DNA of 64,000 nucleotides from a virus (taxonomy: Duplodnaviria; Caudoviricetes): IMG/VR virus record IMGVR_UViG_3300037484_000435, positions 256,001 to 320,000 of that record; one strand, written 5' to 3'. Shown here one piece after another: positions 25,913 to 64,000 of the stretch; the first letter of the stretch is position 1, and every line of letters starts with the position of its first letter. The notes beneath the pieces are model-generated. The model was not told where the DNA came from. It saw only the letters and a program-made list of their open reading frames with translations, and searched no databases. Both the position numbers and the translations under genes were made by a program.

Positions 25913-26266
25913 TTAAAAACTAAAATCCTTTACTCCAGGAATTTCGTCCTCATCGACGAAAGTTGGTATCTTTCTCTCTTGGCCTGTAAAAACTATGTTA
26001 CCTTCCGCATCTACGTATTGCGAGGCGTTATACTGTGCAGTCTCAAAACTGGCTTCAGGGTTCAACCCTATAAAATCTTCCGACTCCAATAGTTGAGACG
26101 TAGCCCTATAATTCCTTGTAACTCTTACTTCCCCACCAAAAGACTGCAGGATATAATTAATAGACCCCTTAGCCATAGTACAGGGACAACTATTACAGAC
26201 AGGAGCAGGAGCCCCAGCACGTAATTTATAACTCACACCAGCTATACAAGATTCTAAATTAGCCAT
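25913..26266 (-). CDS. Small hypothetical protein (117 aa, CxxCxC motif)
   Basis: Its ATG overlaps the stop of endonuclease 2 (TAATG). Contains VCNSCPC. Confidence 0.7.
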   Translation of the reverse strand: MANLESCIAGVSYKLRAGAPAPVCNSCPCTMAKGSINYILQSFGGEVRVTRNYRATSQLLESEDFIGLNPEASFETAQYNASQYVDAEGNIVFTGQERKIPTFVDEDEIPGVKDFSF

Positions 26267-38300: not shown

Positions 38301-41300
38301 CTTCCTTTACAGTGTCAGGTGTAGTAGGTTCTTTAGGAGCAACGCCCGCAAACTCGTCATACATTGCTTTAATTGCTATGTCAACTCCCCCTGTTTTATA
38401 GGCCTCCCCAGCACCTTTAGCCTCAAAGTATCTTTGGTTCCACTCAACTCGCTCTGGAGATTTCGCCCGCTCAGAAGCAGCTTGTTCTTTCTGTGTCCGT
38501 CCTTTATCTAATCCTTTATCTCTTCTCCATTTTATAAATACATCTTCATGTTCTTTTCCCCACGCCTTTTTATGTTTACGTTTCCATTCTTTCTCCTCAT
38601 CGGTTTCCACCCCTTGGCTAATATCCTCGTAAGCCTGATTGACTGCTTGAAAACGCTTGACAGCCTCATCCGGAAGAACCCCTTGAGCAACAAGTTTATC
38701 TGGGTGTGTTTGCTTAACTTGTCTCCTATAAGCCTTCTTGATCTCCTCTGGAGATGCATTTCGTTCTATCCCAAGTATCTCGTGCGGTGTTTGGCCCCCT
38801 ACTGCCCCATCCCACGAAGCACTTTCACTAAAACCACGACCACCCACATCTCTTACTTCTCTTTCCATATCCCTTAAACGTAGCATTGTTGGTGTGACAA
38901 CTTGTTCAGGAAAACTTTGCTTCATTTCTCTCTGGGCCCTACGTTCTGCACGTAGCTTTGCTCGGTCCTCTTTTCTAGGAGCAACTAATTCTGGGTATCT
39001 AGCACGGGTCTGTTCGGTAGATTTTCTAATAGCCTCAGCGAAATTAGGCGCATAACTTTCCATTCTATCAGCCATACTTTCCATCATACCCACAGTTTGT
39101 GGTTTTATATCTGTTCCCACACGTGTTATCTTATTTAAACCTTCGTCCCCAACAGTTTCTCTAAATTGCTTGAACAAACGCATACCCGCCGTCATCTTTT
39201 GTTCTGGCGATAAAGTAGGAGAGACAGTAAAACCTCTGAAAACACCGCCCCGCTCGCCCAACTTGTAGGACAAACTTGCCGCTTTCTCATGTTGAGGTGT
39301 AAACAAATCAAGTACATCGTAGCCACCCTCACGGCCCTTTGACGATATTTCCTTGTGATACCAGTCTGGGGCGGGCCTTCTCTGCACAGGTGTTTCGACC
39401 CCACCAAACATACCCTTTAGAGAACCAAGTAAACTAGCACTCTCGCTAAAGTTATCCTTATTAATTACAGGTGCGGACTCCCTCTTACGATTAAGTAACA
39501 TATAAGGATAGGCGTAACGTGCTTGGTTTAATGCTGGTGGTGTAAATCCCTTTTGGTCTTCTTCATCCTTTAAAACCTTTGGCTGTCCTTCTAAAACAGA
39601 CTCGAAAGCCGCTTGAACTGCCCCAGTTCTTTGTTGTGGTTGAGCAGTAGTTAGGGTGGGGACTTGTAAAGTTTCCTCGCCCACCGATTGAATCATACGT
39701 TCCTTTGCAGTTTGAATAAGTCTTCTATCTTTCTCTATAAGCTGCGGACTTTTAAGAATTCGATCAAGAATGGCGGCTCCCCCGCGAACCATATTCTGCA
39801 TACCTGGGTCGGTTATCTTTTCTCCAAATGCGACTTTAGATTGAATATACCTTATTATCATCTCTTCAATCTTATCTTGATATTCTTGTTTCTTATCCTT
39901 ATTTGAATAACTCCCCCCAGGACCAAATTCGGGAAGACTGGTATAAGCCTGCACTTCTTTTAATATACGCGAGTTGGGCGCAAAGTGTAAACGTTTATAA
40001 ATATCTTCTGTTGTTTCTCCCAAAGGTTTCTTATCTACTTGTGCGTTACGTAAAACTTTTGCCACAGGGTGCAGGCCCGCTTCATGCGCAACACTCAACC
40101 ACGTAGGAACGTCATACCCAGATTCACGCATTTGCCCGTTTTCTAAATCAAAACGGCTTCCTTTTCTAGATCCAGTAGAAACCATGGCTGCAGAACCCAC
40201 ACCACCATAAGTGCCTTTCTGTGCTGATATGCCACGAGTTGTTAAATAACCAGTTGCTGTTGGGACTTTCCCAATATCAGGATCGTCTGTGAATGAGAGC
40301 AATCCTCCCTCAGTATTATATACTCGGTCAGCCTTAAACCCTTTAGGGGCAAGATATTCCCAAGCTTCTCTATTCAACGAGGGCTTAATTGTGTTAGCAA
40401 TATTCATGGCCTGCTGCCCAAGATCTGCCAATGGGGGTTCCGTTATTTTAGTAGGTTGTCCACTCGGAGCCGTGGTAGGTGCTGGTAAAACAAAAGGAAT
40501 AATATTAGGAGATCCAGTGGGAATTGTTGCTGTTACTGGGGTCTCTGATATAATATTACGAGCGGGCTTAACTGGAGGACCCACTACTGTAGAAGTAGCA
40601 GCGTAGACTTGTCCTGCTTGATAACTCCCTGTGGATTCGATAGCAGATTGAGCAGTGCCTCTTGATACTTCTGGTGGTGTAGACGGCACCGCAGAAGAAC
40701 CTCCACCACGTTCATCCTTACTGGTTCCCGTTCCCTTATCCCCACACAAACACTTTTGTATAGTAAGTAATGTTTCGGATATTTTATTCAAAAGTTTGGA
40801 TTTATCTAGGCTCTCCTTCATAGCTAAATCCATAACCCTGACCATTTCTCTACCTTGAGCCGACTTAATGCCTGCATCATCGGCCTTGCTCATAAGGTCC
40901 CTCATTTCTCCGCCTTCAGGCCCTAACCCTTTTAAATAAATCTGTTCTTGTTTTAGGTCCATCGCTGGTTGATAATTAACAACACGCCACATCTCTCTGC
41001 CCTGCGACGATCTAACCCCGTGCTCTGAGGCCATCTTCATATTTTCAGCTTCGTTTAAAGCAGACATTTCTGCTACAGGATTTCCTTCTGCGCGTTTTCT
41101 TATCCCAGATAACCACTCGGCTTCTTCTGCCCCAGCCATCGGTTTCAATTGCCCAAACATACTCCCGCCCAGTATGCCAGGCGTTGTTTCAGAACCATAA
41201 ACATTCTTCAAAATCCAAGGGTCTACACCAGCACCGCCACGGGCGGTAGACGCTAAACCTTGCTGCAAAGATTGCTCTTTCCACTTCTCTACGTATTTTT

Positions 41301-44300
41301 GATAAACTGTATCTGATGTTGTATCAGTTACACTAACATTCCTGCCCACATTTATATCTGTCCAATCTTTCCTTTCATTAATGGATTTTAACTGGGCTTC
41401 TTCTTGTTTTTTTCTTACTTCTTCTGTTGTGAAATTATTAGTTGTTGTTGTCGAGGTTGACGAAGTAGCCCCGTAAGTGGTCTGGCCCAATACACCTGCC
41501 TGTAATTGTGCCAACATATCTTTGGCGTAACCTGTAGGATCCATTACTTGTTTAAAAGCGGCCTTTTGGTCTTCAGTTAGGTCTTTTGTACTTCCAGTAA
41601 GAGCTTCTTGAAGATTTCTGATCGCATCTACAATAGGAACCCAAGTGAATCTTGCAGTTTGTGCTGAATCCTCCACTTTTATAGCCTGCTTGAGGATATT
41701 GGACATTTGTTTAAACTCTGAGAGGGACTCAAACCCACGACGTGTAGCAACCCCACCTCTGTTATCAACTATATCCGCAGCCTTCTCCATATCTTCCTTA
41801 AGTTTAGATTTCATAGGTGCAAACGTCTTTACGAGATCAGGAAACTGACCCCCATACATAACTTCAGTTTCTTCTATCGTCTTTTCTGCTTCTTGTGCAA
41901 CCCCTTTTTGTCGTTCAAATTTTTGATCTTCGCGTTTTTGTAAGTAATTAATCTGCTCTTCTTTTGCAGTCCACGTTATACGTTCTTTTTGTGCTCGATA
42001 CTCCCCAGGTTTAATTTCACCAGACCGATTCTTCGCGTCTAAGGCAGCCAACTCCTGTGCTTCCTTGCTTCCTTGACGAAAAGCCACCGGTACTTTTTCC
42101 GGGTATTCCCTGTCGAATTCTTCATAGTCTGAGCTTTGGGTACGGTAATCTGCCCCCATACCCGGCATAATTACATTCTTCCCACCTATAGTTTCCATCC
42201 TAGCCCGCTGAACTGAAGATGGGTGTTTACCCATCTCTGTGTCCATACGAACCGTGTCTAGACCCCAGCGAGTGCGTGCCATAACTTCTAGTTGCACTGC
42301 GAGTTGCTCAAATTTCTGGGCAACTTGTGCTACCTTTCCTAACATATTAATTTTCTCAATAAGGGGTTCGAGTGCTTTACGGGCCTCCTCAGCAGACCCC
42401 TTGAATACAGTAGACGCCTTTCCAAAAATTTCTGCTTGCGCCAGATACTTTTCTTGTTCCTTGCCTGTTGTGATACCGCCCATAAGTCTGGCTTCAACTT
42501 CTTTCTGCTGAAAAGCCCCAGCTTTCTCAGCTAACGTATTCACCGTAGCGGTGCCCATATGTGCCTCAGCTGCTAGATTAGGAGCATACTTTGTGACAAC
42601 CTCCCTCGGGGTTAATTCGTGTTCAGCCTTAGTCTCTTGCCATTGATACTCAGCAACGCCCTTAGCTGCTCCCGCCACAGGGGACTTTAGTTCTCGGGAA
42701 AGCATGTCTCCAGAGATTCTAGCTAGGTCTCCCATCGTCTGCTTTAACAGTTGCATCGATTCTTGTAATGCTTCCATCTTGGCCAAAGTAACAGCAAATT
42801 GCTGGGCTAAACCCTCAAGGGCTTTCATCTGCCCCTTGTATGCCTCGGTAAGTCCTTCATGTTTTTGCTGTAAAAAGGCTAGTTGGCGATCTAATTCTGC
42901 TACTGACTCCTGATCGCCCGAAGCCGCAGCCATAGTCCTCTTTGCTTGTGTTGCTTGAACTTCCCCCGCCGACCTGCCAAGTTGCTCTTTCCATTGTCTT
43001 TCCAATTCTTGGGCCTGCATCCCTGTTTCATACATCTTCGGAGCATGCTTCGCCATGAGTTGGCTAGGGCTCATCTCATAGGAGTACCATTGTGGGCGTT
43101 GGGTCTCCCCCATATACCCAGACTGAGTAAAAAGACTCGCGTTACGACTATCACTAATTTTTTGTCCGAGAGTTCCCACAGCAGTCGTAATATCCACGAT
43201 CATCTTTTTAGTTTCCATAACTATCTTGATTTCCCACAACTTCTGGGATGCTTTCTTGAGAGTTTCATCTAGGGTAGACACTTCTTGGGTCAATGCTTCA
43301 ATCTTAGCTTCAGCAGCTTTCATCCCTTTTTCATATTGATCCGCACGGTTCTTATCCCCACCAGGTTGTTTCTCCTGTGCATATAATGAAGCCATTTTCT
43401 GTAATTCAGATTTTGTAGCATCTATTTCACTAATAACCTGATTACGTCGCATTTGGGCTTCCTGAGCTTGTTTAGCTTCAGGACCACCAAACTTGGCAAA
43501 ATATTCTTGTGGATTGAGATCAAATTGAGTTCTTGGTCCTTCTTGAATCTGTGTGGGCATCGCTATCCCGGCCATAATACTACCAGGAGCCTGCTTTAGT
43601 GCAGATATATTAAATTCATGGGGAAGGGCTACTTCGAATTTAGCACGCATCCCTACCAACATATTATTCAGCTGCTTAACAAAACCTTCGGCTAAAAGTT
43701 TTACAACCTTACTCTCTTCCGCCTTGAGTTCCCTGATTAGCTTATCTAGCTCCTCTTTTGTTTTAGTTGGAAGGTCTTCCTTGGCTAATTTCTCCTCAAG
43801 ATCTTTCAACATTTCTGCAGTTCTCTCCAGATTATTCTTTATCCCCTGTAGATTAATGGAGCGACCCGCTTCTAGGTCACGTTTAGTTTGCTTTAGTTGG
43901 TCTAACTCAGTATTCCACTTACTTTCGTTAGATGATGCCGCCGAATAGTTACTTTCTGCACTATTCAACTCATCAAATCTCTGCTTAGCCTCGTCTACCT
44001 TCTTTTTAAAACTAACTGCCTCAGGAGTACCAAAGTTACCCTTGTATTTTTCACTGTACTCCCCAGATAGCTTAGACCACTCTTCACCTAGATTTCTATC
44101 TTTATATTTCGCCTTAACTTTTTCAAGTTCCTTAGCTGCTTTTTCTCTTTCAGGAACCGCAGATTTAAGAGCCTGCTCTGCCGCAGGGATACTCGTTTCA
44201 ATAGTTGTTTTTAACTTTTCTCGTTGGCTAGTAGTAAGCTCCGCTTCTTTAGGTAACTTGTTTACCCGACTCTGCTCGTTTGCGACAGCTTCTCTCGCTA

Positions 44301-56300: not shown

Positions 56301-59300
56301 AAACAAGATTTCCTAGTAATCCTCCAGTCAGTTCGTTATAAAAACCCCCAATAACCCCTAAGTCTTCTTTACCTACTCTTCCAAACGCATCCTTTAGATT
56401 ACCAAATATAGCGTCCCTGATAAAACTACCTATATCAGTAATAAAAGTGGCGGGTAATCCTACTGTTGTTAAGCCTGATTGAATCAATCGGTAAGCTTGG
56501 TTAGCATAATCCTTTACCCCTTCACCAATACCAGTCATTACTTTTATTAAATTTTGAATGTTTTCATTACCCAAAGACATCCGTAATGAATCCAAGACAT
56601 TATTTTTCAAATCACCGAAGAAACTCATTAATCCTTCGGAAATAGTCAAAGCCAAATCCTTTAATACTTTTTGTATATTAGCAGTTCTAGTCTCAGAAAA
56701 CATTTTAGAAATTAATGCTCCGCCAGATTCTGCTGAAGATATTAATGCTGCTGCTCCAGTGATGGTTTTGGCGTACCACTCGGAAATAACTCTTCCACCT
56801 GAATTTATCGCCGCATTAATTGCTCCTGTAAATTGGTCTGCTTGAGGTTGATACTGGTCAAGCATCCCATAAAGCTCTTTTCCTTGTGGAACCCCGAGTC
56901 TCTCAGGTAAATTAGATAAGGAAACATACTGTTTAGAAACCTGATAATTGCGACCTGTAAGCGCATCGTATCTATTTTCACGACCAAACATGTCCCCGTA
57001 ACTCTGCGCTGGTTTGGTGGTTATAGTTTCTTGGAGTTTCTCTAAATTCCCTCCAGTAAGCTGTTCAGCTACCTGCCGCATAGTGTCTAAATTCCTTCCA
57101 GCCTTTACTTCAAAAAATTTATCCAAGCCTTTGTCGCTAGTTAATTTCATAAAGTCACCAGCAGTAGTACCTTTTCCAACTCCTAAAATATCTTGCTCTA
57201 CTTTCATCATGGCGGCATCTAATTCAGCGTTAGCGTCATCAAGCTTCTTAGAGATATCTTTCATACGTCCGGATAGAAATGGTGGGATCATTCCAGTTTG
57301 TGCCCCACCTTCGTACCCAAACTTCCCAGTCACCCCTAGATAAGGAACAAATCTCTGAGTGTTTATAGTTCTTAGTGGTGTAGCTCCCAACATTTGGGCC
57401 TTTTCTTGCGCAGCTTTTAATTCGCCCATTTGTGAAAGCAATGCTTGCTGTTTTTCGTAAGGAGTTTTAGGCAACAGTGCTTCAGACCATTGCTTTCCGA
57501 CTACCGGTATAGTTTCAAGTGCTGATTGTAAAGAGCCCCTTACTTGATTCGCCCCAGTCCCAGTTGGAAATATAGTGCCTGCCCTAAGTTTTGCAAGATC
57601 AATTTTTTCCATGTTTTGTAAAACATTCAGCTGTGATTGAAAGACATCTAATAAATTACGGGCCTTAACAGTAGTGTCAAGTATTGCATTACCAAACACA
57701 TCATACCCTTTTGCTAGGGTTGGCACCATCTGAACACTAGCACGAGTAGCCTCATCCTCTGCCTTTTTAAACTCCGCTATTTTTGTCACCACAGACTTAT
57801 AGTTCTTTGACATGCCTTCGCTATATACCAGCCTATCTCGTTCCTTTTCTGCACCGGAAGGAAGGTTTGGGCCAGCGGCTGGTGTAGTTAATTGTTTTTC
57901 AGTTTCCAGCAATACCTGTCTTTTGGTTTCCGCGTCTGTCCATTTCTTTTCTAAATCCGACATTTCGGTAAATTGTTGCCGGATCTGTCCTGGAGCATTC
58001 ATACGTGTTTGGTAACGACGCAACGTTGATTCTGGTCCACCAGCCACATCTTGTATCTTTTCTCTGCTAGAGTAGGCAAATCCAGCAGCTAAACCTAACG
58101 GAAGTAGACTTCTTATAACTCCAGTCCCAGCCCCCGCAGCTGTCCCCATAACTGCGCCCATCACCTTTGACGCGAGAGAGATAGAACCTATTGCTGCAGC
58201 TAAGGGTAATAGTTTATCACCAGAGTCTCCCATCAACCCCAATGCTGCAGTAACACCAGCCAGAACGAGGCCAAGATTGCCAGCTGAGGACGACATAGAA
58301 GAGAACATCGAGTTAAACGTCCTACCTGTGGCCAGAGTCAAATAAGCCATCTTACCTAAAGTGGTAGAAGCATCCCCCAAACCTCCAATGTCTTTTACAC
58401 TTTCGACCGCCCCTAGTGTACTTCTAATGGGAGATACTGCGAATTGAGTAATACCAGAGACGGCACCTGTGGCACCAGAACTTAGTCCAAAATTCTGTAG
58501 TCCACTCATTACCTTCTCGATTTGACTAGAAAATGTTGCGAATGTACCTAGTCCTAAAATAATCTGTTTAATACGATCGGGAACCAATGTAAAAGCCCCA
58601 ACCAACCCTCTGGTAGCATCCGTTAAAACTTTCATTGGCTCAATAGCAAGCTTTCCGAAATCAGTGTACATTTCCTGCATAGATGCTCTTAATTGCTGAT
58701 ACTTTGTATTAAGTGTGTCCAACTGCAACTCCAACCTAGCCTCAGTAGCTCCTTGTGAGTTCATTGAATCAGAAACCGAATCTTGTGCTTCCTTAAAATT
58801 GTCCATCAAAGTAATAAATGCGTTATAATGACGGGCACCAGCAATAACGCTAGCATAATTTTGTCTTTGAGCATCCGACATTGTTTGCCATTTGACATTT
58901 AACTCCTCTAGGAAACGCATGCCGGGTTTTAATTCACCACTCGGTAACAGGGTGTCCATCTTAAGTTCATCTTTTAATTTATTTCTTACAGCTGAGGTCT
59001 GCAAATTTTTAAACATGAACCTTAAGGCAGTACCAACCTCCTCCCCTGTCTGACGTGTCACAACAGCAATAGCCGTGATTATACCATTAAGTTCGTGAAA
59101 ATCTACACCAGCAGTTCTAGCGGCGGATCCAGCTCGAAGCATACCACTTGCTAACTCCTTAGCTGTTATTGCGTGCTTAACGTCAACATTTATCCATGCA
59201 TCTAAATATTTTTGAGCGGCGCCCATCTGCTCACCGTATTGTTTTGTAGCTGCAGTCAAGTACTCAGTAACCTCAGCAGATTTCATGTCAGTAACTGTTG

Positions 59301-62300
59301 CCGCCATAACAGCCACACGAGTTCGGTCAATGATTTCAGCTTGTTTTAAACCTTGCTGACCAAATACTACCATAGCATCTAGAACATCTTTGACATTAAC
59401 CCCCATACCAGTGGCCATACCAAAGGCAGCATCTCTAATTTTATTCAAATTAGTAACTTGTGGATCTGTGACCTTTGCTATATTCATTATGGCCGTCTCT
59501 ACATCTGCCATTGTGGAGACCATTTTTTTGAATTCAGTCGCTACAGTACCTACAATTGCAGCGGCCCCGCCCCACTTGGTAATAGTTTCTACAGCCCCAA
59601 AAAATGTCTGTGACTCGGCAACTTGTTTATTCATGTCGGTAAAGTTTACTTTAACTCCGTTTGCCGCCAATGAAGTTTTAGTTAAGTCCGCTCGAATCTT
59701 TTCTAATACAGCCCCAGCCTCATCTTTAACCTCTAAGTTTAAAGACATTGCTTGGCCCTCTTTCATATCAGGACTAGTAGCAACCTTTTGTTTGTAGTAT
59801 TCTAGTAATTGCTTATTTCCAGAAACCTGTTGTGGAACAGACAGCCCCATAGGTATGATAGGGGCAGCCGCCTGCATCATCGGGTCAAACCGACCTGAGA
59901 ATTTCGTTTGTTGTGCGGGTCCTCGGAATTGTTCTTCAAGGGACTTCCAATATCGGAGACTCTCAACAGTAGTATTGGGGTCTCGACCTGCCTCGTGCAC
60001 TGTGGAACGTAAATAGCCATGAACACCAGATATATCTTTTGGTACATTGGTTGAGGTCTTTAAAATCCCACTCATTACTTCTTGGTAAATAGAAGTGGGG
60101 CTAATTCCGGTAGGCTCTAAACTCTGAAGAGCTTCTACTGCCTTCTTAGATACACCCTCTAACCCTTTGGACAGGAAACCCCCCACTGAGATTACATCAC
60201 TGAAAGCTTCAGGACGTCCGAGGGAAACATTCTCACGATCTCCAGCACCTAGGAAACCACCAGACCGGTAAGTTCTAAAAGGATCCGATAGAGGATGTAC
60301 AGCTGTTGAGGACCTAAGAGCAGTAGCAACATATTTGATGATATATTCATCGATTTCTTTACTTAAATGGGCAACAGTATTTTTGTTGCCGGCTTGTGCC
60401 GCGGTATTTAATTCATTCCGCAAACCTTGTAAATGGTTCAAATAAGTTTCAGATATATGGGCCAAAGTTGCTTTCTGGGATTTTGCGACCTTACTTTTAT
60501 CAGAAGTATCCACAGTCACAGTATTTTGTAGAGATTGGAAAGAACCCAATACTTGGTCTAAAGTTTTACCTTGCATGCTACTGGGCACTACATCTTTTAT
60601 CTCTGATGGTAATCTCCAAGGAGAACGAGCAGAAACAGGAGTATACCCCCGCAACGTAGGCTCCTCAAGCTCTGCTTCTTGTGCTGGACTATAAGAAGAG
60701 CTTCCCTCGTAATAATCAAGCCGTGCTCTTTCTCTTTCCTTTCTAAGTAAAGATGTTCCAACCTCTTTCCCAAAATATTGTCCTGCCAGTAAACCTCCTA
60801 TACCAAGACCTATCTTGCTTATGGGACTAACACCAGCCTTGAAACCTGCAATACCACCAAGTAATGCTCCACCTCTCGACATCCAAGTTCTATTCGTTTT
60901 TAATTTATCCACATATTCTGGGTCCATATACTCAGGGTAGAGAGATTCCATACTACCCTCATCTGCTAAATCTGCCCTCTCTTTGTCTGAAAGCCACTTG
61001 TCCACCTCGGCACCGCGTGGTCCCTGTTTACCGCCTATACCAAAAACTTTTCTTTCAATTTTCTCACCAATATGGCCCCCAACAACACCACCACCAAGAC
61101 TACCAGCCAGTGCACCTAGAACACGGACTAAGGTTGCCGCCTTAGGCCCGCCGCCGCCCATAGATCTTAAGGCCGTTGAGGCTGGAGCAGTTAATCTAGA
61201 ACCTAGAGCAGCCCCCATAGCAATAGTTGCGGCCTGAACAATCTGCTCAGGTATTTCGCTAGCTATAGCCCTAACGGGAGAAACCCCTTGCGCAACTTTC
61301 TCCTTTACATCGTAAGCCCCAACTGCAAAATGACCTAAAGCTGGAATCATCTTAAATGCGCCACCGGCCACACCTTTTAATGCATCAGTAAAATCACTTT
61401 GTCTCAAAGCTTGTCCCACATCAGACATACCCGTCCCGAAAGCCTCAATTGGCTGTGTAACTAGGCCCCTGAGCCCCCTAATACCACTTAATAAAGCACC
61501 AGGTCTACGTGATAAACCAGATACACCACTAGAAGCCATTACTCCAGACGGAACCCCCCAGCTTTCATTATAAGGCATACCTCCTAGACCAAGATGTTCA
61601 ACCGCAAATTTACCTATACCCCTATTTTTTGAACCCAATAGATTACCAGGACCGTAGATTTCTCCTACTTGTCTATTAAATTCTTCCATAAGACCTGTGC
61701 CAGTCACATCTCTACCGGGGAGCATTTGTTTTGCTGATTCATACACACTAGGTAGTATTTTGAATGATTTTTCTAAGCCTTCCTCGGTAAAATAGCGTCT
61801 AGCCATCAAAGCTCTGGCCCCCATACCCAGACCTTGGGCAGTTGATTGTGCAGCACTAACCGCCTGTGGAACACCATAGGCGAGCAAGTCTACACCACCG
61901 TGGGTAACGTCTGCCGTACTTCGTAAGAATTTCTGGGATACAGGGGGTGGAGCAGGAACCTGCCCAGTAGACATGTGGTAAACCATTCTATTTGCAGCTG
62001 CCTTTTTTATTGCATCTGGACTTCCTTTTTGACTAATAGCTTCCTGAACTGTTTTCTCATAATCTAACGCTGATTCAGCTGGGCCAAGACGCTGCGCGGT
62101 ATCCATCCATTTAGTGGTGTCAAAAGGTGACTCTTTAAATGAATCTGGATATTCCATCATCCTGCTAATCTTTTTAAATTCTAAATCGATTAATTCTCTT
62201 ATGTTTTTTTCCGTTAACCCACGAGACCTAGTCCGTCCTGCTTCCAAACCCAATCCTGTAGTACCCCGATATGTAGGAAATTCCTTTAGACCAGCACCTA

Positions 62301-64000
62301 ATCCAGACAGTTGTTCAGTAATCATATTTGACACATTTTCATCTACACCAGCAATGGATTTGTAAGCACTATAGGGAGATTTCATAAGGGTCCAAGGCAA
62401 GCGTAATCCGAAAGATGTTGCCCCATACCCCAATTGTGCGCCGCCTTTCGCAACACTTCCTAAGGCGTGTGTAAAACTTGGGGGAACTTCATTTCCCCTA
62501 GAAAATAACTTTTCTAACCCAGTGTCCTTCAAAATACTTTCAACAATATTCTGTGGTATACCGTCCTTACCCATCGTTCCTCTCGCCAGTGCACCTAAAT
62601 TCTGCCGTAATGCGAAAGCAAGACCCCTAACAGTTGATGGGTGCATACCAACATAATCAACTGGCCGATCAATAGATTTGGTTGGTTCAATCCTCATCCC
62701 GTAAGGGTCCTTATTCTCAAGAAGTGATTCTTTAGTATCAAACCTTCCCAAGGTTATGGGTTCTGGCATATTTATTGTGTAAGGGCCAACTTTAGCTTCC
62801 CCCTCTAAACTTAGTAATGCATTGCCGTGGGTTTTCTTTCTCAACAATCCCACCAAATGTGGGTCAATACCCTCTAGCATTCTCTGTGGGGCACCTAAAA
62901 ACCTCTTCTCTCTTACCCCAGGATGAGATAAGACTTCTAGTGCTTTACTTACTTCAGATGGATCAAACCCTAAAGCAGCGGAGACTAGCCCTGGGGTTCC
63001 AAGAGATACCTCAAATTTACGCGACTTGTCTTCTGCTTCCCACTCAAATGTTTTCTTCTTGAGAGATTTGGTCCCCTCGAACAAAGGCGAGTAGGCCTTC
63101 ATAGCCAAATCCTGCTGTAATCTTCCTTGCAAAGCCTGAATTTCTTGAGTGTTACTTTTCGACATCTTCATTTCTGGGTGTCCAGCAAGGATTTCTTGCA
63201 TGGCTTCCCAACGTGCGGCGGGGGATTTACTAAAAGGCTTCCCAACCTCCCCTGCCCTCTTCTGGGCCTGTTCAAACTGTCTTTGATAAACATCCTTAGA
63301 TGTACTAGACATTGCCTCAGAGATAAATTTATCTACAAGAGGACTCGATACAGCCCTAGTCTTCCACATTCCCTTGACAGATTCTGGGGCTTCATTAATA
63401 TCTAAGTGCGTTTTTTCATGTGCGTATGTTTGTTGGATTGACCTTCCAATACCTTCTTTTTCAGTTCCTTTAGCGGACATATAAGCCTTAATAATTTCTG
63501 GTGGCATGTATATCTTACCGCCCCCACCAAGACCCACAGCAAAACCTTGTTTTAAGTAATTAAGGTTACGGTCTTGTGACATACCACGCTGTCTAAAAGG
63601 TTCCGCTGATACCGTCAAGTTCCCACCCTTTAGGAGGTTAGCAACCGTGTCAGTTCCCTTGGCAGGAGCAAAAGACGGTAAACCTTCGAGAGAATTCTCC
63701 TCGGGCGTTCTAACAGACATTTGTTGAATTTTTGCAGCTGCTGCAGAAATACCCAAAGAAGCTGGAATACGCAACACCATTCTACTTACTTCCCCACTTT
63801 GGTCTGAAAACCATAAACCTAATTGAGAAATTTTATCTATAATAGCAGAGTAGTGTTTACCTAGATCTACACTAGGTACATTTTCAGATACGGCGTCATA
63901 TGTTCTGTATAAGCCCGACACGACATCATCATACATCTTACCAACACCACCATAGAAGTTACTCGCAAAATCCTCAACTTGTGGTCGTTTAGAGAGTATA
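32395..64000 (-). CDS. Giant phage tail tape measure protein (partial, >10,534 aa; N-terminus lies beyond the window)
   Basis: The track ORF is 10,513 aa from ATG 63936, but the 21 codons upstream to the window edge are also open (...ILSKRPQVEDFASNFYGGVGK-MYDD). Contains a TP901-type core, long coiled-coil and Gly-zipper segments and the TMP-like C-terminal motif GITQVFVTNWP, and is followed by hub/baseplate genes. Confidence 0.9.
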   Translation of the reverse strand, partial: ILSKRPQVEDFASNFYGGVGKMYDDVVSGLYRTYDAVSENVPSVDLGKHYSAIIDKISQLGLWFSDQSGEVSRMVLRIPASLGISAAAAKIQQMSVRTPEENSLEGLPSFAPAKGTDTVANLLKGGNLTVSAEPFRQRGMSQDRNLNYLKQGFAVGLGGGGKIYMPPEIIKAYMSAKGTEKEGIGRSIQQTYAHEKTHLDINEAPESVKGMWKTRAVSSPLVDKFISEAMSSTSKDVYQRQFEQAQKRAGEVGKPFSKSPAARWEAMQEILAGHPEMKMSKSNTQEIQALQGRLQQDLAMKAYSPLFEGTKSLKKKTFEWEAEDKSRKFEVSLGTPGLVSAALGFDPSEVSKALEVLSHPGVREKRFLGAPQRMLEGIDPHLVGLLRKKTHGNALLSLEGEAKVGPYTINMPEPITLGRFDTKESLLENKDPYGMRIEPTKSIDRPVDYVGMHPSTVRGLAFALRQNLGALARGTMGKDGIPQNIVESILKDTGLEKLFSRGNEVPPSFTHALGSVAKGGAQLGYGATSFGLRLPWTLMKSPYSAYKSIAGVDENVSNMITEQLSGLGAGLKEFPTYRGTTGLGLEAGRTRSRGLTEKNIRELIDLEFKKISRMMEYPDSFKESPFDTTKWMDTAQRLGPAESALDYEKTVQEAISQKGSPDAIKKAAANRMVYHMSTGQVPAPPPVSQKFLRSTADVTHGGVDLLAYGVPQAVSAAQSTAQGLGMGARALMARRYFTEEGLEKSFKILPSVYESAKQMLPGRDVTGTGLMEEFNRQVGEIYGPGNLLGSKNRGIGKFAVEHLGLGGMPYNESWGVPSGVMASSGVSGLSRRPGALLSGIRGLRGLVTQPIEAFGTGMSDVGQALRQSDFTDALKGVAGGAFKMIPALGHFAVGAYDVKEKVAQGVSPVRAIASEIPEQIVQAATIAMGAALGSRLTAPASTALRSMGGGGPKAATLVRVLGALAGSLGGGVVGGHIGEKIERKVFGIGGKQGPRGAEVDKWLSDKERADLADEGSMESLYPEYMDPEYVDKLKTNRTWMSRGGALLGGIAGFKAGVSPISKIGLGIGGLLAGQYFGKEVGTSLLRKERERARLDYYEGSSSYSPAQEAELEEPTLRGYTPVSARSPWRLPSEIKDVVPSSMQGKTLDQVLGSFQSLQNTVTVDTSDKSKVAKSQKATLAHISETYLNHLQGLRNELNTAAQAGNKNTVAHLSKEIDEYIIKYVATALRSSTAVHPLSDPFRTYRSGGFLGAGDRENVSLGRPEAFSDVISVGGFLSKGLEGVSKKAVEALQSLEPTGISPTSIYQEVMSGILKTSTNVPKDISGVHGYLRSTVHEAGRDPNTTVESLRYWKSLEEQFRGPAQQTKFSGRFDPMMQAAAPIIPMGLSVPQQVSGNKQLLEYYKQKVATSPDMKEGQAMSLNLEVKDEAGAVLEKIRADLTKTSLAANGVKVNFTDMNKQVAESQTFFGAVETITKWGGAAAIVGTVATEFKKMVSTMADVETAIMNIAKVTDPQVTNLNKIRDAAFGMATGMGVNVKDVLDAMVVFGQQGLKQAEIIDRTRVAVMAATVTDMKSAEVTEYLTAATKQYGEQMGAAQKYLDAWINVDVKHAITAKELASGMLRAGSAARTAGVDFHELNGIITAIAVVTRQTGEEVGTALRFMFKNLQTSAVRNKLKDELKMDTLLPSGELKPGMRFLEELNVKWQTMSDAQRQNYASVIAGARHYNAFITLMDNFKEAQDSVSDSMNSQGATEARLELQLDTLNTKYQQLRASMQEMYTDFGKLAIEPMKVLTDATRGLVGAFTLVPDRIKQIILGLGTFATFSSQIEKVMSGLQNFGLSSGATGAVSGITQFAVSPIRSTLGAVESVKDIGGLGDASTTLGKMAYLTLATGRTFNSMFSSMSSSAGNLGLVLAGVTAALGLMGDSGDKLLPLAAAIGSISLASKVMGAVMGTAAGAGTGVIRSLLPLGLAAGFAYSSREKIQDVAGGPESTLRRYQTRMNAPGQIRQQFTEMSDLEKKWTDAETKRQVLLETEKQLTTPAAGPNLPSGAEKERDRLVYSEGMSKNYKSVVTKIAEFKKAEDEATRASVQMVPTLAKGYDVFGNAILDTTVKARNLLDVFQSQLNVLQNMEKIDLAKLRAGTIFPTGTGANQVRGSLQSALETIPVVGKQWSEALLPKTPYEKQQALLSQMGELKAAQEKAQMLGATPLRTINTQRFVPYLGVTGKFGYEGGAQTGMIPPFLSGRMKDISKKLDDANAELDAAMMKVEQDILGVGKGTTAGDFMKLTSDKGLDKFFEVKAGRNLDTMRQVAEQLTGGNLEKLQETITTKPAQSYGDMFGRENRYDALTGRNYQVSKQYVSLSNLPERLGVPQGKELYGMLDQYQPQADQFTGAINAAINSGGRVISEWYAKTITGAAALISSAESGGALISKMFSETRTANIQKVLKDLALTISEGLMSFFGDLKNNVLDSLRMSLGNENIQNLIKVMTGIGEGVKDYANQAYRLIQSGLTTVGLPATFITDIGSFIRDAIFGNLKDAFGRVGKEDLGVIGGFYNELTGGLLGNLVSATKGMGNIIAEGLSSAFRGISNIIVSSIGAVSPDIANKVQGAFSFLSSIGTSDIKTVITGSFTTLSNTVKGVMGWVKDEAKRIEAATPKTGGEEESAVAKRFLARQERWNLMLQQQGLAKEVITEGVTRGAMQEPKALVATSAGEGKYYVAVGAVGEGANEQILNTKEPQDWTTMTKIAYQEVESARAKGIKPGDTMGWTQLTQEAYKTGALSPEKAMPLIMPEPGELPYAQGRAPGGLEERRIGWENLQGKIETWSRKQAGMFDIGKEYEKTKQYAGGGAAMFMPKFQGHEALKLGEKFLFEVEGSRKAQDAMWEVAEAIRDMDVQWKLYTSDTASADKSASKIKEMQDLLVKKRKLEFLIQVREEWENTFNTIAKAKIDEQVTIAQDRAEVAARRVKVGFESEDRLPVKMPTKPKAWAELSEEQKLGIINPEYARVTQRQSETEMRGQRYIQTEKLLAGTDTRTRLMAEDLKEQLGGRLGESLGKENVDRILRSIGTAPEGKKEDAALVGLQTSQLHLIEKVISELQDLNRSAATANKSDKQLLSDYDKYTADYKKTLASANEKNLSEPERFQRLKLAEQYRQLASTSGQRLVEGQPNSNLLKQKVPSEAISNALPGFVEYAQTKITNFDKKWEPIVGKQFTQKKGLSGWMGAFEDLFTSPQERDQQFLEKAQQYYTSKLGPKTKAGDIGVKTPAVDIESEAWSNLSQNWKPVSMDLEAVGPAADVVSKAIDKLWSTWTDLIGLGKMTIGLDLGGWFRDLGKDAEGLSDSVETKVSGAISKTGKGISDYIVGAMDYVTKSPDFSSYESTYKDKGSHLGDRFLRAIGVREDRGFDWQKPSPLWRVAEEDAGYVKPYQDPLREAMVENYYDFDKRERGLRTVAERAKKTKRFTPAGFMPESGLREDLLGEQDRENFLQMMGQPKEPDSFPAWAARGTVGSLYDLTSFLPDIGRTLVGGPTSERDKLKSTASWGTHLRQFMGLAGEQPISWGDWAKQTVGMPVPNFERETATIAANRRLGTPMEEQQRRWGNIPRPPAVSRPEPEFPMAERVWKDFDLGGLWMEGINSLTNNLPSRISKRISDLHIGRRINNALGNVFGEDRLSKLIGIEEISMKDRFDPMFLAKRDLVQWKKEKAERDKLQREATRARAIMEGGMPEPSRYLRPLQAGVGAYLGSQVAEKFFGGNILKATEAGNSLLKSLSQSADWDRRIMLNHSDWLRQIADNTAVMRAAAPAGGVIGSGSDDQLAPRSRLLRASIEQSQSMSFMGAAVTAAAAYMAFKLITRAYPGAFQGVGGLVKGLPESFLATHPVPTQTNLGDPRILENLITDAKRYGERQPRFADWSTQPNFQGDIWKRAMRDPRQFETSAGQQLLPATTPAQSSRWYQRLVNGEPEGTAGPTLGRSGLRRFAVGAALGGLMPTVISSLMFSGFLGAGTRGGSALGGLVGPRTGVAGHVLGGSMLGGAGLLSIAALGPVGMAAIGGLAGVMTLLPHVSNLKKDMQMTYDFVRAITGALGKGEALGGITSFVRERMIPITGTTAKLTALRPTAWAAEGLSSLAGRAGASIGGLPGMSSTAGVVIERSLLGLSGALGAVGRTMRGWIDGINRLQAWAADTTVTDRINNLGVSTALRLSQWPLKLADSLRLIELSLTQGLGKQSFIGVFDNVINFLRTNVRARVESAIGVSATQSISRVASPFVSAARNILQPTPVVDQITGARAWQPGIIGRAFAGRRLEGLYDRASERWARAGAPQYVRAGERMPWALSERGGTRGFMLGAGLSALELGTGLPGTLIGGALGSVGYRAALGTGFRPGLMAAGAAGTLGALGPTGFGELMHIAPEAGAALGAYGGIRAGAFGQWAKPAQGRYGVDPFYSQRLMEEIASGVGTDRQTSNIFRARNRFMAGGAIGTLTGLGGIKGSILGLTAGHPVLSTLAAGGMATLAGASLPLAAGVAAAGGIYGAVTRRMTGRGIQERMMQTAEQVHLAQLGMGNQSLTPSTASGEQAVFGGIGAVATPKYKQVWNFMSGLLGGKGTPVGAELEEQFMRQQFMRQRGTLPGMGGLDIVQSRAQQFWMDNLMSQYYAGRSRGQTGLPTISAGPNALNHSEFFTRMVGMPNVQNAGSAIDNLRGPNTSRFGMTPQDVQHRLPIIESFGILQNTRTQYQDTFRNIMDTDAKLAEPRQHLMESVELKERRLRRNDKYIASTKKLLDSTNQALESATDNDIMRKLGESRAKFEARLDDLKRARAGIESLFSSQAGQFEAEIRRLEEIRDKHIGKFGVLEKRLAQIRELLSGGVPRQRGGSRVTVGDITVPEADIEREIQQREAYLKRTSAAKTDRSGQSLATELQYEIDRRVQGGMSPQHEEIRRLQTLQTNLSNPANQQGRAETGRERNARIATEKQGIDVLQNQLSRRGELGFVLNEARQNMQQQGYTLNQGDVPLPANVQEGLYRRISQDQAEASMKRRTGPAGTPAATVPLQELHDALIRTEQIDRGFFAPRNRIMARTMPEINGTQLRPVSNRVEAELRRRLRERAIDAEMMPGTQQDRAGRLVAEAIVNERGVDISSEAMTGEMNRLYRQTRRGPAPGVRRMGIENMLREAHGLGNTTPLPEEANREYENIIRGLDERSRATRVVDSTRVDMRTPEVLESARRVRSARNNAGALQRLAADIFPARDVLSPQDLQSYLGDDVRPGVATHRTRGQIIENLYRRGIASGIQSPALPRDPMGAYTIMAGVAKEHLAVRGGALTQGLRTPAEGSLVSPLKQLGIEQEWHRLHELEANIREMDRNNVGRGDPLYTRHVQERNRVNTIVETALKPQEMFRTSEDVAVRRTELQAELKRVNAEMRRVSEVLKEFTQQGAENVSRLSQVKMDPEMRRYYRNKPVAEVYTDLQTRAQTLGTHEKLITDVEAGKANYFETVSGQTRLYSTIERLNEMLNQMKTGAGKDVNTTYTELSRAIETLPPELQRNYSIYAERLREYVSHGSDRFVQPLQNLTEMIRTERPINAGEITQRLHATLTQTEGAPGTVQQPLTRDVLQARINDFLKAEMIDPMSQAGKEIQRFSASLAEGNRDIRTNIRGMSLAFQELERTGMPRPSGLSPSKGAGMTGMMLTMMGTEYAASKLEETFKLSHAQAYGGIAGVAGLGSILMNVGGGKPALGNVGAMPRAFGQGVMSVIRPDVMVAQEIGGAAGKGMTWKSNLFGEGGTLKTIMGGAKAETAALERAIADFNKGLPVAEEFGHLGKTATGKILTAFPSVAKSLPALRGVGHALPAVGVVAETISGVTEAKEKYGVGGLTSIVPELVGALGLQGILMGIFSAVGSVFAGPLGTVAGAAASALAYDLVKPLGTKIKDFIYENIMGIELVGKANPVVDMSAFSPAARKQSEFARANKDLEDLRKQSTVSVPSQLTSALVPLLGAGGMMVGMKSFNEKMDSEMLEDRMRSQTGYMSELIGGDKGTFDELSKTEFGKYLKSTDKSGYRELDRDYKRIAMLKRQAQEEGGIDKVINIAAGLGKGAKDTLGFDPLLGFSPLKAMGVGPTPTQELEKAIEALRDKMKAQALKISDNPEKIKQELEEMELRRQSLKNDNAEVLALTAAFAKARAASEELAQTFKTSKENMGFGRGFGGPDIQQRMRDVTEATPMDRFKQEQPAVYQAWTRFESEEKAYQSQMQEISQKSVGERTKLQQQLGFITLENNPKLQKEVTKNEGGKYSDFINFQNQAKRIVSATPAEAVGMRETFLALGGKITRAQDDKLKNMEETIPFLDNLEDLKGKTKSKKVSAAGTEIEEQLTAVAKRRQQLLEDRKAGKISEKELGPQIDRLSSIEQALNALRDKAQAEVPLRAARTAGYEIARGISEIDAGVKQYDALNKKLEELRDNYAGIITAGEAMMRLFKEMQAVERARLEIKRAELGWNRNEVTGVAGAELQKATYSWGPMSSNYGKVAPLTQNLLPKPIAEMTAEELVALNPDNKRDIEKINQKRAMVEEAQKADVQARAAMDSAAIAREAVANEQSRVNKLPKEAELTTSQREKLKTTIETSIPAAEQALKSAVPEREKAAKELEKVKAKYKDRNLGEEWSKLSGEYSEKYKGNFGTPEAVSFKKKVDEAKQRFDELNSAESNYSAASSNESKWNTELDQLKQTKRDLEAGRSINLQGIKNNLERTAEMLKDLEEKLAKEDLPTKTKEELDKLIRELKAEESKVVKLLAEGFVKQLNNMLVGMRAKFEVALPHEFNISALKQAPGSIMAGIAMPTQIQEGPRTQFDLNPQEYFAKFGGPEAKQAQEAQMRRNQVISEIDATKSELQKMASLYAQEKQPGGDKNRADQYEKGMKAAEAKIEALTQEVSTLDETLKKASQKLWEIKIVMETKKMIVDITTAVGTLGQKISDSRNASLFTQSGYMGETQRPQWYSYEMSPSQLMAKHAPKMYETGMQAQELERQWKEQLGRSAGEVQATQAKRTMAAASGDQESVAELDRQLAFLQQKHEGLTEAYKGQMKALEGLAQQFAVTLAKMEALQESMQLLKQTMGDLARISGDMLSRELKSPVAGAAKGVAEYQWQETKAEHELTPREVVTKYAPNLAAEAHMGTATVNTLAEKAGAFQQKEVEARLMGGITTGKEQEKYLAQAEIFGKASTVFKGSAEEARKALEPLIEKINMLGKVAQVAQKFEQLAVQLEVMARTRWGLDTVRMDTEMGKHPSSVQRARMETIGGKNVIMPGMGADYRTQSSDYEEFDREYPEKVPVAFRQGSKEAQELAALDAKNRSGEIKPGEYRAQKERITWTAKEEQINYLQKREDQKFERQKGVAQEAEKTIEETEVMYGGQFPDLVKTFAPMKSKLKEDMEKAADIVDNRGGVATRRGFESLSEFKQMSNILKQAIKVEDSAQTARFTWVPIVDAIRNLQEALTGSTKDLTEDQKAAFKQVMDPTGYAKDMLAQLQAGVLGQTTYGATSSTSTTTTNNFTTEEVRKKQEEAQLKSINERKDWTDINVGRNVSVTDTTSDTVYQKYVEKWKEQSLQQGLASTARGGAGVDPWILKNVYGSETTPGILGGSMFGQLKPMAGAEEAEWLSGIRKRAEGNPVAEMSALNEAENMKMASEHGVRSSQGREMWRVVNYQPAMDLKQEQIYLKGLGPEGGEMRDLMSKADDAGIKSAQGREMVRVMDLAMKESLDKSKLLNKISETLLTIQKCLCGDKGTGTSKDERGGGSSAVPSTPPEVSRGTAQSAIESTGSYQAGQVYAATSTVVGPPVKPARNIISETPVTATIPTGSPNIIPFVLPAPTTAPSGQPTKITEPPLADLGQQAMNIANTIKPSLNREAWEYLAPKGFKADRVYNTEGGLLSFTDDPDIGKVPTATGYLTTRGISAQKGTYGGVGSAAMVSTGSRKGSRFDLENGQMRESGYDVPTWLSVAHEAGLHPVAKVLRNAQVDKKPLGETTEDIYKRLHFAPNSRILKEVQAYTSLPEFGPGGSYSNKDKKQEYQDKIEEMIIRYIQSKVAFGEKITDPGMQNMVRGGAAILDRILKSPQLIEKDRRLIQTAKERMIQSVGEETLQVPTLTTAQPQQRTGAVQAAFESVLEGQPKVLKDEEDQKGFTPPALNQARYAYPYMLLNRKRESAPVINKDNFSESASLLGSLKGMFGGVETPVQRRPAPDWYHKEISSKGREGGYDVLDLFTPQHEKAASLSYKLGERGGVFRGFTVSPTLSPEQKMTAGMRLFKQFRETVGDEGLNKITRVGTDIKPQTVGMMESMADRMESYAPNFAEAIRKSTEQTRARYPELVAPRKEDRAKLRAERRAQREMKQSFPEQVVTPTMLRLRDMEREVRDVGGRGFSESASWDGAVGGQTPHEILGIERNASPEEIKKAYRRQVKQTHPDKLVAQGVLPDEAVKRFQAVNQAYEDISQGVETDEEKEWKRKHKKAWGKEHEDVFIKWRRDKGLDKGRTQKEQAASERAKSPERVEWNQRYFEAKGAGEAYKTGGVDIAIKAMYDEFAGVAPKEPTTPDTVKEDLARKQAEESARMQEEQNRKQAEEAVKRQQQEEIARQERQARANERVSQGGAIDKAGQAEELANYQRLAEEKARAMTSKVESKGPQEGTLSDVERAKQEYRDKRAQLVNERNEARDKAKIAQAAGENVFPGKVAGKYQVKIDALDAEFRGRGGTAYHHVNVENVLAEAEAELAHYEKQGERKLGVKPIQKVQMGSVHKAVRESLEAGIPIEAKHQRSTVMQHAVTDIYQSPHAYGLDNLADLWEKQAKEPLLNEVKTRDVGGAEQALIETEQAPKESRMEAGLRKQSEAMRGSVGEGVESLPGGKGLSPEMSSRDWWIRSQQEAASGTAPQPEKATNKLPDFSEFSGEPADKSMPEAKPQAEKVAEVKARSWRESFNEKGNKVLDFASKHRRAVIGGVLGLGAASGLGLVPAVLGGLAGTAAGEGWDYVKQLRRQEPSQEKLQKEIDRENKRLEKDRELEKEYKDKVDDAKRTMDENKDYKEVKPGIWDRTARRGQRRYEKAEINQVNYEQKRRKAEESIKQREEQIDNLSRQKESASPQKTWREQWEQAKDFVKRPLGGTYDTYDTGKEGDTRWEYVKDLARGAKDYATRDLRTAGEKARGGLDFGEYYNYNTGQRPDTQKGSWWQNIKQGHKELRGEEAIRRGVSQLSEGQLEDMMKRTGQIKETKEFDRGKSVDYLTSRLSEMQQRGTEGGARITQSGKEIGIEHRGGSEYRIGEMGEQIYDALFMEENAAAKRRGRSGSESVREYRKDVGLHEAVEQAVYNRPAEERPELIKNLYEQSKEAFAEKPELWRAAEEAVVAPEGVEKTGYQKDWEKEQVELADKYRDQGLEGNKEYDVAREALAQKQSEQMKLETVSHLTETDVGRDIVLGTKAAKPLREEFITGQTATLGNERLGSRMAGARIFTKAGMAFGGKLEGLEKLAGGGSLAQVAEFVGAKGTAEKLSKNRFGNMSVMGPLMLASLGLHGYEQGSKVEGMEGPNYFSGIAGGAANATIMPKTFGLGQTMVSETLPGLNNLKGLSALKVPLRFGGGVLASEIAMNFANEGVKGLALDPTLQMASKYWGEVGGQVKEGLGLGKEGKLGGAVEAIAPYVEPLGVVPNTMLKGAETIMGALGGTLEMGENVVSKFLPEYALGGAKGLISPTIWGGIGKAEEFITGGKRGHTYSGARSQMDEIIKAGFVEKHGQEAYDMATKSSGGQIGWTGIKGLFGKGGKEFDEKQEAARKQLTEYQQVSEKEIITGGMPAYMKSTFTGARTGTGRDWESRLTGLTPEQEDTLRTGNVPEGWTGADMGNLFNKRESQIKPEHMELWEEQAYMKQGANTPEEQLALKVRLKGPAIMPGTMGTSVQAANMRLAGIQVPNEKPSILRTPGEEQARVDAATQPNILPMPKNFGDLTRAFPNQGDFMNAGLSGGMVMPQGGLFPAEGPATGTGGLADQGKPATGGAWTRDQMLAYRTQRHIAAGVQLEPEAWSYYEKQKQKIRDAGGEVPNYYADQEKGIVDPRYYKAASDSIPDKVGVGPVYGGPKTGQAGGISAAKAAEGITQVFVTNWPEMLGGRGTHIVDAQMMGRVNRAGSIDEVGANAGDAAAMRTRASLNEERDRMLSTGINPDTAQSNKGYDYRGFQPSTASTQSQVVVSTDPSKYSSPYRAGDGVTSAMTPLRMEPSQAWVNPTTPTKEGVFNTDKMGASLGPLEEKLGAIQKALETKTVEEGILKAVQDVKTALENSKQEEKAKEVTPPVNPTVPETKPAGTEVPAVPPATSPYATPSEGNFRQLENQSTEKGSTLETAINSLVEALNAAGGNIGSAVAEKLQGIKVELAPGAQVTAVLAEGSVGAIANQVKESGFLTQEEFKNTVTEKVKEALDAVKGAAGVAASAENAASPELTKQLQSIVDRAQETLAKLEDQAKLQEKDTSGLKTSVDTAVQKATDAERIAKDALEAANQAKSSAGQQQVPSAVPRTPNSEFGD
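38611..38790 (-). other. DnaJ J-domain embedded in the tape measure protein (aa ~8383-8442)
   Basis: TPHEILGIERNASPEEIKKAYRRQVKQTHPDKLVAQGVLPDEAVKRFQAVNQAYEDI reproduces the J-domain consensus, with HPD at 38698-38706. Confidence 0.92.
39840..40260 (-). other. Putative zincin-like (MPTase-type) metallopeptidase motif 2 in the TMP (HExxxH)
   Basis: WLSVAHEAGLHPV at 40069-40086, followed ~70 aa later by IEEMIIRY. Confidence 0.55.
58590..59523 (-). other. TP901-family tape measure core domain (aa ~1472-1780 of the track ORF)
   Basis: MADVETAIMNIAKVTD...AMVVFGQQGL...TRVAVMAATVTDM...YLDAWINVDVKHAITAKELASGMLRAGSAARTAGVDFHELNGIITAIAVVTRQTGEEVGTALRFMF. Confidence 0.85.
63180..63480 (-). other. Putative zincin-like metallopeptidase motif 1 in the TMP (HExxH)
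   Basis: TYAHEKTH at 63406-63420, with a downstream WEAMQEILA (63181-63210) as candidate third zinc ligand. Confidence 0.55.

Follow-up and report, generated by a model that had tools for sequence, protein, structure and literature searches.

Can a phage tail protein cut itself into a tape and separately released effectors? This question is raised by a giant gene on the minus strand of the IMG/VR virus record IMGVR_UViG_3300037484_000435 (545,322 bp), of which we analysed positions 256001-320000, a stretch of 64,000 nucleotides hereafter called the window. A sequence-only reading of this stretch had picked out two zincin-like metallopeptidase (MPTase) motifs in the gene, HEKTH and HEAGLH, and had proposed that they bracket the tape region of a self-processing polyprotein. 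Our observations concern the architecture of the encoded protein, the placement and conservation of its motifs and the confidence of the predicted folds. The protein is a single tail tape-measure protein of 14,712 residues that doubles as a 'polyvalent' carrier of cargo domains. The overall explanation that we consider best, and hold with moderate confidence, is that in this polyvalent tape-measure protein HEKTH is the active site of a zincin with a role in cleavage and HEAGLH is a chance string.

One giant frame and its two HExxH motifs

The window holds one huge minus-strand frame, which extends over 32395-63936 from its first ATG (10,513 amino acids, aa) in the list of open reading frames. 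The frame stays open for 12,533 nucleotides (4,199 codons) past the window end, as far as an upstream stop at position 332534 of the genome, and a search of the whole record gave a total length of 14,712 aa from stop to stop. The ATG at 63936 is residue 4200 of this frame. The frame does not begin there, and HEKTH and HEAGLH are therefore residues 4372 and 12150. Below, window-aa numbers count from the ATG at 63936 and full aa numbers refer to the whole frame. The features on which the analysis bears are, in window coordinates:

32395..64000, minus strand: last 10,534 codons (C-terminal part) of the giant gene for the tape-measure/polyvalent protein (list of open reading frames)
63097..63654, minus strand: domain B, probable zincin-like domain of the MPTase type, window-aa 95-280, full aa 4294-4479 (AlphaFold2, conservation, hhalign)
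63406..63420, minus strand: HEKTH, a canonical HExxH, window-aa 173-177, model residues 84-88, in the long helix of domain B
63169..63225, minus strand: S-P-A-A-R-W-E-A-M-Q-E-I-L-A-G-H-P-E-M block including QEILA (63184-63198), in a later helix
58837..59430, minus strand: tape-measure core, PF10145 PhageMin_Tail, window-aa 1503-1700 (Pfam E 2.3e-26)
40069..40086, minus strand: HEAGLH, an HExxxH string in a lineage-specific block
39853..39867, minus strand: EEMII, with the candidate glutamate for HEAGLH about 75 aa downstream (presence only)
38617..38787, minus strand: J domain (DnaJ), window-aa 8384-8440, in the lineage-specific C-terminal block (Pfam E 2.3e-13)

The whole protein contains exactly two HExxH motifs, HEKGH at residue 3593, outside the window, and HEKTH at residue 4372, which are also its only two HxxxH strings. 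Histidine makes up 1.0% of the residues and 0.12 HExxH is expected by chance in the whole protein; with two seen, the pair is unlikely to be accidental. HEKGH lies in a domain that we call A (L002:2374-3096, minus strand), HEKTH in domain B, and both domains are N-terminal to the tape core, on either side of an RNase H domain. They match each other around the motif (hhalign E 1.2e-4) and both end in A-[LM]-x-E-x-[LI]-A-G, while a BLASTP comparison of A with B was not significant (E 0.62). From these sequences we infer that domains A and B may bind zinc and hydrolyse peptide bonds.

From the N-terminus, a putative RNA-polymerase-like region is followed in turn by an RNA ligase, a phosphoesterase of the LigD type, domain A, RNase H and domain B; next come the tape core, a long tape and, at the C-terminus, a variable block with a J domain. 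In the part of the protein encoded upstream of the window, Pfam identified the RNA ligase (RNA_ligase, aa 3061-3217), the phosphoesterase (LigD_N, 3410-3505) and RNase H (3705-3830); for the putative RNA-polymerase-like region, what is established here is that aa ~870-2280 are common to distant relatives. Within the window part of the protein, Pfam finds only the PhageMin_Tail core, which scores 93.4 bits against a cut-off of 33.2, and the J domain. The tape-measure assignment is shared by 13 PHROG tape-measure families that match the protein, down to E 2.8e-64, and J domains of the PDB match the sequence of the C-terminal region, down to E 6e-9.

The giant frame (window 32395-64000 and L002:1-13533, minus strand) is the largest tape-measure protein met in this analysis. 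It contains just 2 cysteines in 14,712 residues, and self-BLAST detected no internal repeats. In a simple hydropathy scan, four segments stood out as strongly hydrophobic (full aa ~3862, 8211, 10040 and 13137).

The four strings named in the sequence-only reading are present on the minus strand, HEKTH and HEAGLH at the positions it gave (HEKTH 63406-63420, QEILA 63184-63198, HEAGLH 40069-40086, EEMII 39853-39867). A candidate glutamate, which it had placed about 70 aa after each motif, was found 75 aa after the first histidine of HEKTH (E248, the glutamate of QEILA, a candidate third zinc ligand) and about 75 aa downstream of HEAGLH, where for EEMII only its presence is established. The order it had described is also correct: HEKTH is situated 1,330 aa ahead of the PhageMin_Tail core and HEAGLH about 430 aa ahead of the J domain. 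The portion called GNAT-like gave no Pfam match even at E<=10. The bracketing of the tape region does not hold, as both credible HExxH domains precede the tape core. The bracket picture, like the numbering of the first region as aa 100-270, is an artefact, because the window edge cuts the frame. The annotation is thereby corrected: only one of the two flagged motifs merits follow-up, and its relevant partner, HEKGH, lies outside the window.

Conservation and predicted fold of domain B

Megablast of 5.9 kb revealed no close DNA relatives in public phages. Single-protein pattern scans of viral contigs with either motif region or with the tape core recovered no relatives, and none was obtained when the HEKTH region was compared with longer proteins in a word-index search. 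An alignment-based scan of the viral contigs returned 50 loci, one of them at 53% identity. This locus belongs to G001 (211 kb), whose 13,617-aa frame is co-linear with the giant protein from aa 2 to 11964 and contains HEKGH at 3565, HEKRH at 4173 and no HExxxH. Pattern scans with a small alignment also gave L057, a metagenome contig of 82 kb in which HEKGH is followed by HEKMH, and G006, a 256-kb phage (IMGVR_UViG_3300005077_000001) with a 12,316-aa frame that contains HEVGH then HERTH. Both HExxH motifs occupy matching positions in G001, G006 and L057. When 1.84 billion representatives were searched exhaustively by phmmer for the HEKTH region, only four matches were obtained, among them a 193-aa fragment (P0011) with HEKGH at the position of HEKTH.

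The HEKTH site is invariant as HE[KR]xH in all four relatives that cover it (G001, G006/L060, L057 and P0011). Two blocks are invariant in the five domain-B sequences, T-Y-x-H-E-[KR]-x-H..I..A-P and A-A-R-W-E-A-x-Q-E-[IL]-[IL]-A-G-H-P-E-M; the block that contains QEILA has 15 of its 19 columns invariant, and the 40 invariant columns of domain B as a whole are concentrated in the HExxH block and in the A-A-R-W-E-A-x-Q-E block. In identity to G001, domain B (49-52%) stands out as an island from its flanks (26-39%), and in the co-linear block only the tape core is higher (60-62%). After domain B, the stretch at window 62587-63096 (window-aa ~281-450) carries another conserved motif, H-P-x-[VM]-R-E-[KR]-R-x-L-G-x-P-Q-R-M-L-E, which it has in common with fragment P0014 and the first part of which (H-P-x-M-R) also occurs in G001.

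A tape-core search restricted by length identified five more distant relatives of 7-7.9k aa (P0006-P0010, 7,000-7,858 aa). Their only parts in common with the giant protein are the polymerase-like region and the tape core, with ~1,000 aa between them; the ligase, the phosphoesterase, RNase H and both HExxH domains are missing. HExxH is absent from four of the five; the other contains a single HExxH, unrelated and close to the C-terminus. Two of the five contain an RNase_T exonuclease domain (PF00929).

In order to describe the fold of domain B, an AlphaFold2 model was built from a four-sequence alignment. It reached a predicted local distance difference test (pLDDT) score of 83.8 and a predicted template modelling (pTM) score of 0.78. 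The elements of the model follow one another as three short strands with an N-terminal helix, a 26-residue helix with HEKTH, three inserted helices and a helix with P-A-A-R-W-E-A-M-Q-E-I-L-A. DSSP assigned strands to model residues 18-20, 47-49 and 52-55 and helices to 32-40, 68-93 (HEKTH) and 150-162 (E248), and the pLDDT of the HEKTH helix 68-93 is above 90. HExxH and the candidate glutamate are thus borne by separate helices that follow a small sheet. This order of elements fits the MPTase core described in PMC5512222.

Structural comparisons with the model gave low scores throughout. In a search independent of Foldseek, the highest Z-score (4.6) came from ion-channel helices that match only the C-terminal half of domain B. 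Five rows extend over the N-terminal alpha/beta part of the model, and three of these are zincins. The values for individual enzymes were Z 4.2 for PprI/IrrE (8sln_A, root-mean-square deviation (rmsd) 3.7, 87 aa), Z 3.7 for anthrax lethal factor (1yqy, 125 aa) and Z 3.3 for Zmp1. When the Foldseek list was realigned, the top 13 rows were M34 zincins without exception, with lethal factor 4dv8 (Z 4.0, 125 aa) in first place and PPEP-1/3 among the others. Zincins of the M34 and M78 families use HExxH and a downstream glutamate ligand. The Atlas shape rows comprised Tox-MPTase3 and M78 clusters with template modelling (TM) scores below 0.45, and in the Atlas feature searches all scores were below 0.9, and LPD23, M78 and SprT-like rows were kept as leads only; PF18838, the profile of the LPD23 lead, had no match in the genome. 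Each of these matches to a predicted model lies within the noise range of the tools; it is their agreement that counts.

Domain B was further compared by hhalign with the MPTase region of the phage N4 virion RNA polymerase (vRNAP; aa 2130-2448), aligned with eight schitovirus homologues. The score was 25.8 (P 0.014) over 162 co-linear columns, against 13.6 for the reversed control and 15.8 +/- 3.0 for 60 block shuffles (maximum 24.5). The alignment placed the I-Y..P strand on I-Y..P, HExxH on HExxH and A-M-Q-E-I-L-A-G on the invariant A-L-N-E-F-M-A-W. Domain A scored 19.2 against the same module, which is background level (17.5 +/- 2.2 for 15 shuffles). Taking motif, conservation, model and profile together, we infer that domain B probably belongs to the zincin superfamily. 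HEKTH would then mark what is probably a further member of the zincins of polyvalent proteins, in a family both new and very small.

The HEAGLH region, the C-terminal block and neighbouring genes

No test made on HEAGLH gave a positive result. No homologue of its region was found in the viral contigs, in a word-index search of proteins of near length or in the complete records G001 and G006. The block is absent from both of these close relatives and the motif shows no sign of conservation. The single-sequence AlphaFold2 model is unusable (pLDDT 39.9, pTM 0.25); at this low confidence it displays strands and then helices, with a break inside the motif. Comparison by hhalign gave background scores with domains A and B, and with the N4 module the score was 15.6, against 15.2 +/- 1.5 for 15 shuffles, in an alignment that misses the motif. 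Pfam at E<=10 returned no peptidase family for the region, and solved structures returned only J domains. For a single HExxxH string the chance expectation is 0.12, equivalent to a probability of ~11% for at least one, and HEAGLH could be such a chance occurrence. It is improbable that this region is a zincin; the likeliest reading of HEAGLH is an HExxxH string that arose by chance in a swappable orphan module at the C-terminus.

The two zincin-like motifs of the sequence-only reading have thus fared differently. HEKTH is probable, as it lies in a conserved and folded domain: together with the QE block it is invariant in every relative that covers it, and its region is predicted with confidence, although the zincin matches of the model are weak. 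HEAGLH is unsupported, its spacing being HExxxH, its region having neither homologues nor a confident model and every test on it being null.

The C-terminal ~2,750 aa of the giant protein (full aa ~11965-14712, window ~32395-41040), J domain included, have no counterpart in the G001 protein. The co-linearity seen by BLAST stops at aa 11964, and the last 1,350 aa of the G001 protein are unrelated to the giant protein; since Pfam found no family in its C-terminal 1,348 aa, this block of G001 has no J domain. From these sequence comparisons, the C-terminal cargo of such tape-measure proteins appears to be swapped between lineages. The G006 frame (102047-138994) contains HELFGH (aa 9222) and HEINH (aa 9802) after its tape core, in stretches (L062:17344-18306 and 19144-19926) that are not alignable to the giant protein and have no Pfam match.

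The tape-measure gene is flanked on both sides by members of PHROG 4645 ('endonuclease'; their N-terminal part is D5-like), four paralogous genes in all and all on the minus strand (window 26266-27246 and 27985-28797; L002:14637-15542 and 15606-16748), which look like a mobile or homing-type nuclease family. The tape-measure gene is followed downstream by another giant one (5,054 aa, window 5888-21052, minus strand), for which Pfam gave only a weak match to DUF5000 (E 2e-6). Pfam assigned no family to the neighbouring 832-aa and 858-aa genes.

Possible roles of domains A and B and comparison with known systems

In the mechanism that we propose, HEKTH would be the active-site helix of domain B. 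Its two histidines, together with the glutamate of the A-x-Q-E-[IL]-[IL]-A-G-H-P-E-M helix 75 aa downstream, would hold zinc, and the glutamate of HExxH would activate water. Domains A and B could then, either once ejected or while the tail matures, cut linkers of the same or of sister chains, and such cuts would free the N-terminal enzymes from the membrane-bound tape. The location of the two domains between cargo and tape fits the proposal of PMC5512222 that polyvalent proteins are taken apart by their MPTase domains as they are deployed; release of neighbouring domains by MPTase is in that work a proposal and not a demonstrated rule. Self-processing is plausible, and cutting of its own or of sister chains is the likeliest reading of what domain B does, even if we would put its chances somewhat short of even. 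A more specific version, in which A and B form an undescribed clade-specific zincin family dedicated to cutting the tape polyprotein after ejection, so that the RNA polymerase, the RNA-repair enzymes and RNase H are released into the host and the tape is left behind in the envelope, must be considered tentative.

Several observations weigh against the reading of domain B as a self-processing zincin. No Pfam peptidase was matched at E<=10 by the five domain-B and four domain-A sequences, and PF18818 (MPTase-PolyVal), which does match control genomes, had no match at E<=10 in the whole 545-kb genome. A search of solved structures (PDB) with the HEKTH region found nothing, either as a single sequence or as a profile, and Foldseek with the domain-B model retrieved nothing from PDB and BFVD at E<=0.001. 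All structural Z-scores are at or below 4.6, a range in which a match may mean no more than a common arrangement. For domain B and the N4 module, hhalign gives a probability of only 3%, from a five-sequence alignment. The association of H173, H177 and E248 in one zinc site is predicted from motif and helix order, not from coordinates. The domain-B family is tiny (the four matches among 1.84 billion representatives), and its conservation is for this reason sampled at only 35-49% identity. The absence of both domains from P0006-P0010 indicates that the tape does not need them. Finally, three proteins with MPTase domains, the vRNAP of N4, ArdC and TraC1, reach their destination without being cut (PMC5512222), which weakens the self-processing step.

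Among the other explanations, the one ranked next as the job of A and B is that domain B, and with it domain A, is an active zincin that cleaves host proteins in trans after ejection, while the tape-measure protein stays whole. We judge this to be rather unlikely in itself, but it draws on the same fold and motif evidence as self-processing, and its targets could be defence or repressor proteins, as for enzymes of the IrrE/ImmA or lethal-factor type. Taken singly, the best of the structural rows is that of PprI/IrrE, a zincin that cleaves a regulator in trans. Host-protein cleavage is listed as an open alternative in PMC5512222, where the full-length delivery of the N4 polymerase, ArdC and TraC1 argues in the same direction, and the polymerase of phage P23-45 works still fused to the tape in the model of PMC10770324. 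No substrate-binding or targeting feature was identified in the domains, however, and they sit between cargo modules, the position for which domain release has been proposed (PMC5512222). What remains after self-processing and cleavage in trans is that domain B is non-proteolytic or no zincin at all. It might be a conserved structural or adaptor module of the tape-measure protein, or a metal-binding domain or other hydrolase on a zincin-like scaffold that keeps HExxH for a non-proteolytic purpose. The failure of every sequence profile to find a peptidase would agree with this, as would the low structural Z-scores, equalled on the C-terminal half by ion-channel helical bundles, and the presence among the structural matches of YbeY (1oz9), a zincin-fold RNase, next to modules that all act on RNA. 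But H, E and H are invariant and accompanied by a Glu-bearing helix at the spacing of N4-type modules, the protein has two independent HExxH domains while being nearly free of His pairs, and most of the matches that extend across the model are zincins; we consider a non-peptidase role unlikely.

The original picture, in which zincins at HEKTH and HEAGLH bracket the tape and cut the protein into a tape and effectors released on both sides, is the least probable of all and can be given very little credence. Both strings exist, an HEXXXH variant of the MPTase motif has been described in polyvalent proteins (PMC5512222), and the break inside the motif of the low-confidence HEAGLH model would not be at odds with a bent active-site helix; G006 has in addition its own unrelated HELFGH and HEINH downstream of the tape core. 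Against this stand the absence of the HEAGLH block from G001 and G006 and of relatives in any search, its poor model (pLDDT 39.9) and background hhalign scores with A, B and the N4 module, the ~11% probability of one chance HExxxH and the location of the real HExxH pair wholly upstream of the tape core.

No domain is commoner in injected 'polyvalent' proteins than the zincin module, for which release of its neighbours has been proposed. The giant protein offers a clean test case, with two conserved HExxH domains between a delivered enzyme cassette and the tape core. Cleavage, if it takes place, would account for the way in which enzymes joined to a tape that spans the membrane are freed in the cytoplasm, and the phage tail would possess a built-in, protease-controlled system of cargo release. 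Otherwise the two domains more probably serve as weapons against the proteins of the host.

Among characterised zincins, domain B resembles the M34 family, with Z 3.7-4.0 over ~125 residues for the catalytic domain of anthrax lethal factor and Z 2.8-3.0 for PPEP-1/3, and the M78 enzyme PprI/IrrE (Z 4.2, rmsd 3.7, 87 residues). It differs from both in that these Z-scores are in the range of a common arrangement, at 9-15% identity and with no sequence-profile link, and in the inserts between the two core helices.

For the carrier, a counterpart is the tape-measure protein of the Thermus phage P23-45, gp96 (5,002 aa), which has a virion RNA polymerase in its N-terminal part (PMC10770324). In both proteins a tape is fused to a polymerase (putative here), and gp96 also has a metallopeptidase domain and membrane segments, the likeness of its peptidase to the domains studied here being one of description only. 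No proteolytic processing of gp96 is reported in PMC10770324. The giant protein is three times longer and has additional RNA-repair, RNase H and J-domain modules.

The closest resemblance is to the MPTases of polyvalent proteins, especially that of the N4 vRNAP gp50 (aa 2130-2448). In both, an HExxH helix comes after a small sheet, a Glu-bearing helix follows ~75-80 aa later, past inserted helices, and the I-Y..P strand, HExxH and A-[LM]-[NQ]-E-x-[LM]-A are co-linear in hhalign. Lethal factor 4dv8, the structure reported for N4 (PMC5512222), is the top re-ranked structural row for domain B. Unlike N4-type modules, domain B is neither found by PF18818 nor linked by hhalign with a probability above 3%, and its family is confined to a handful of metagenomic giant proteins. 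As in gp50, the module is set among the enzyme modules of a very large virion-delivered protein with an RNA polymerase, again putative here; the carrier is in this case a tail tape-measure protein, and in N4 a capsid-packaged protein of a podovirus.

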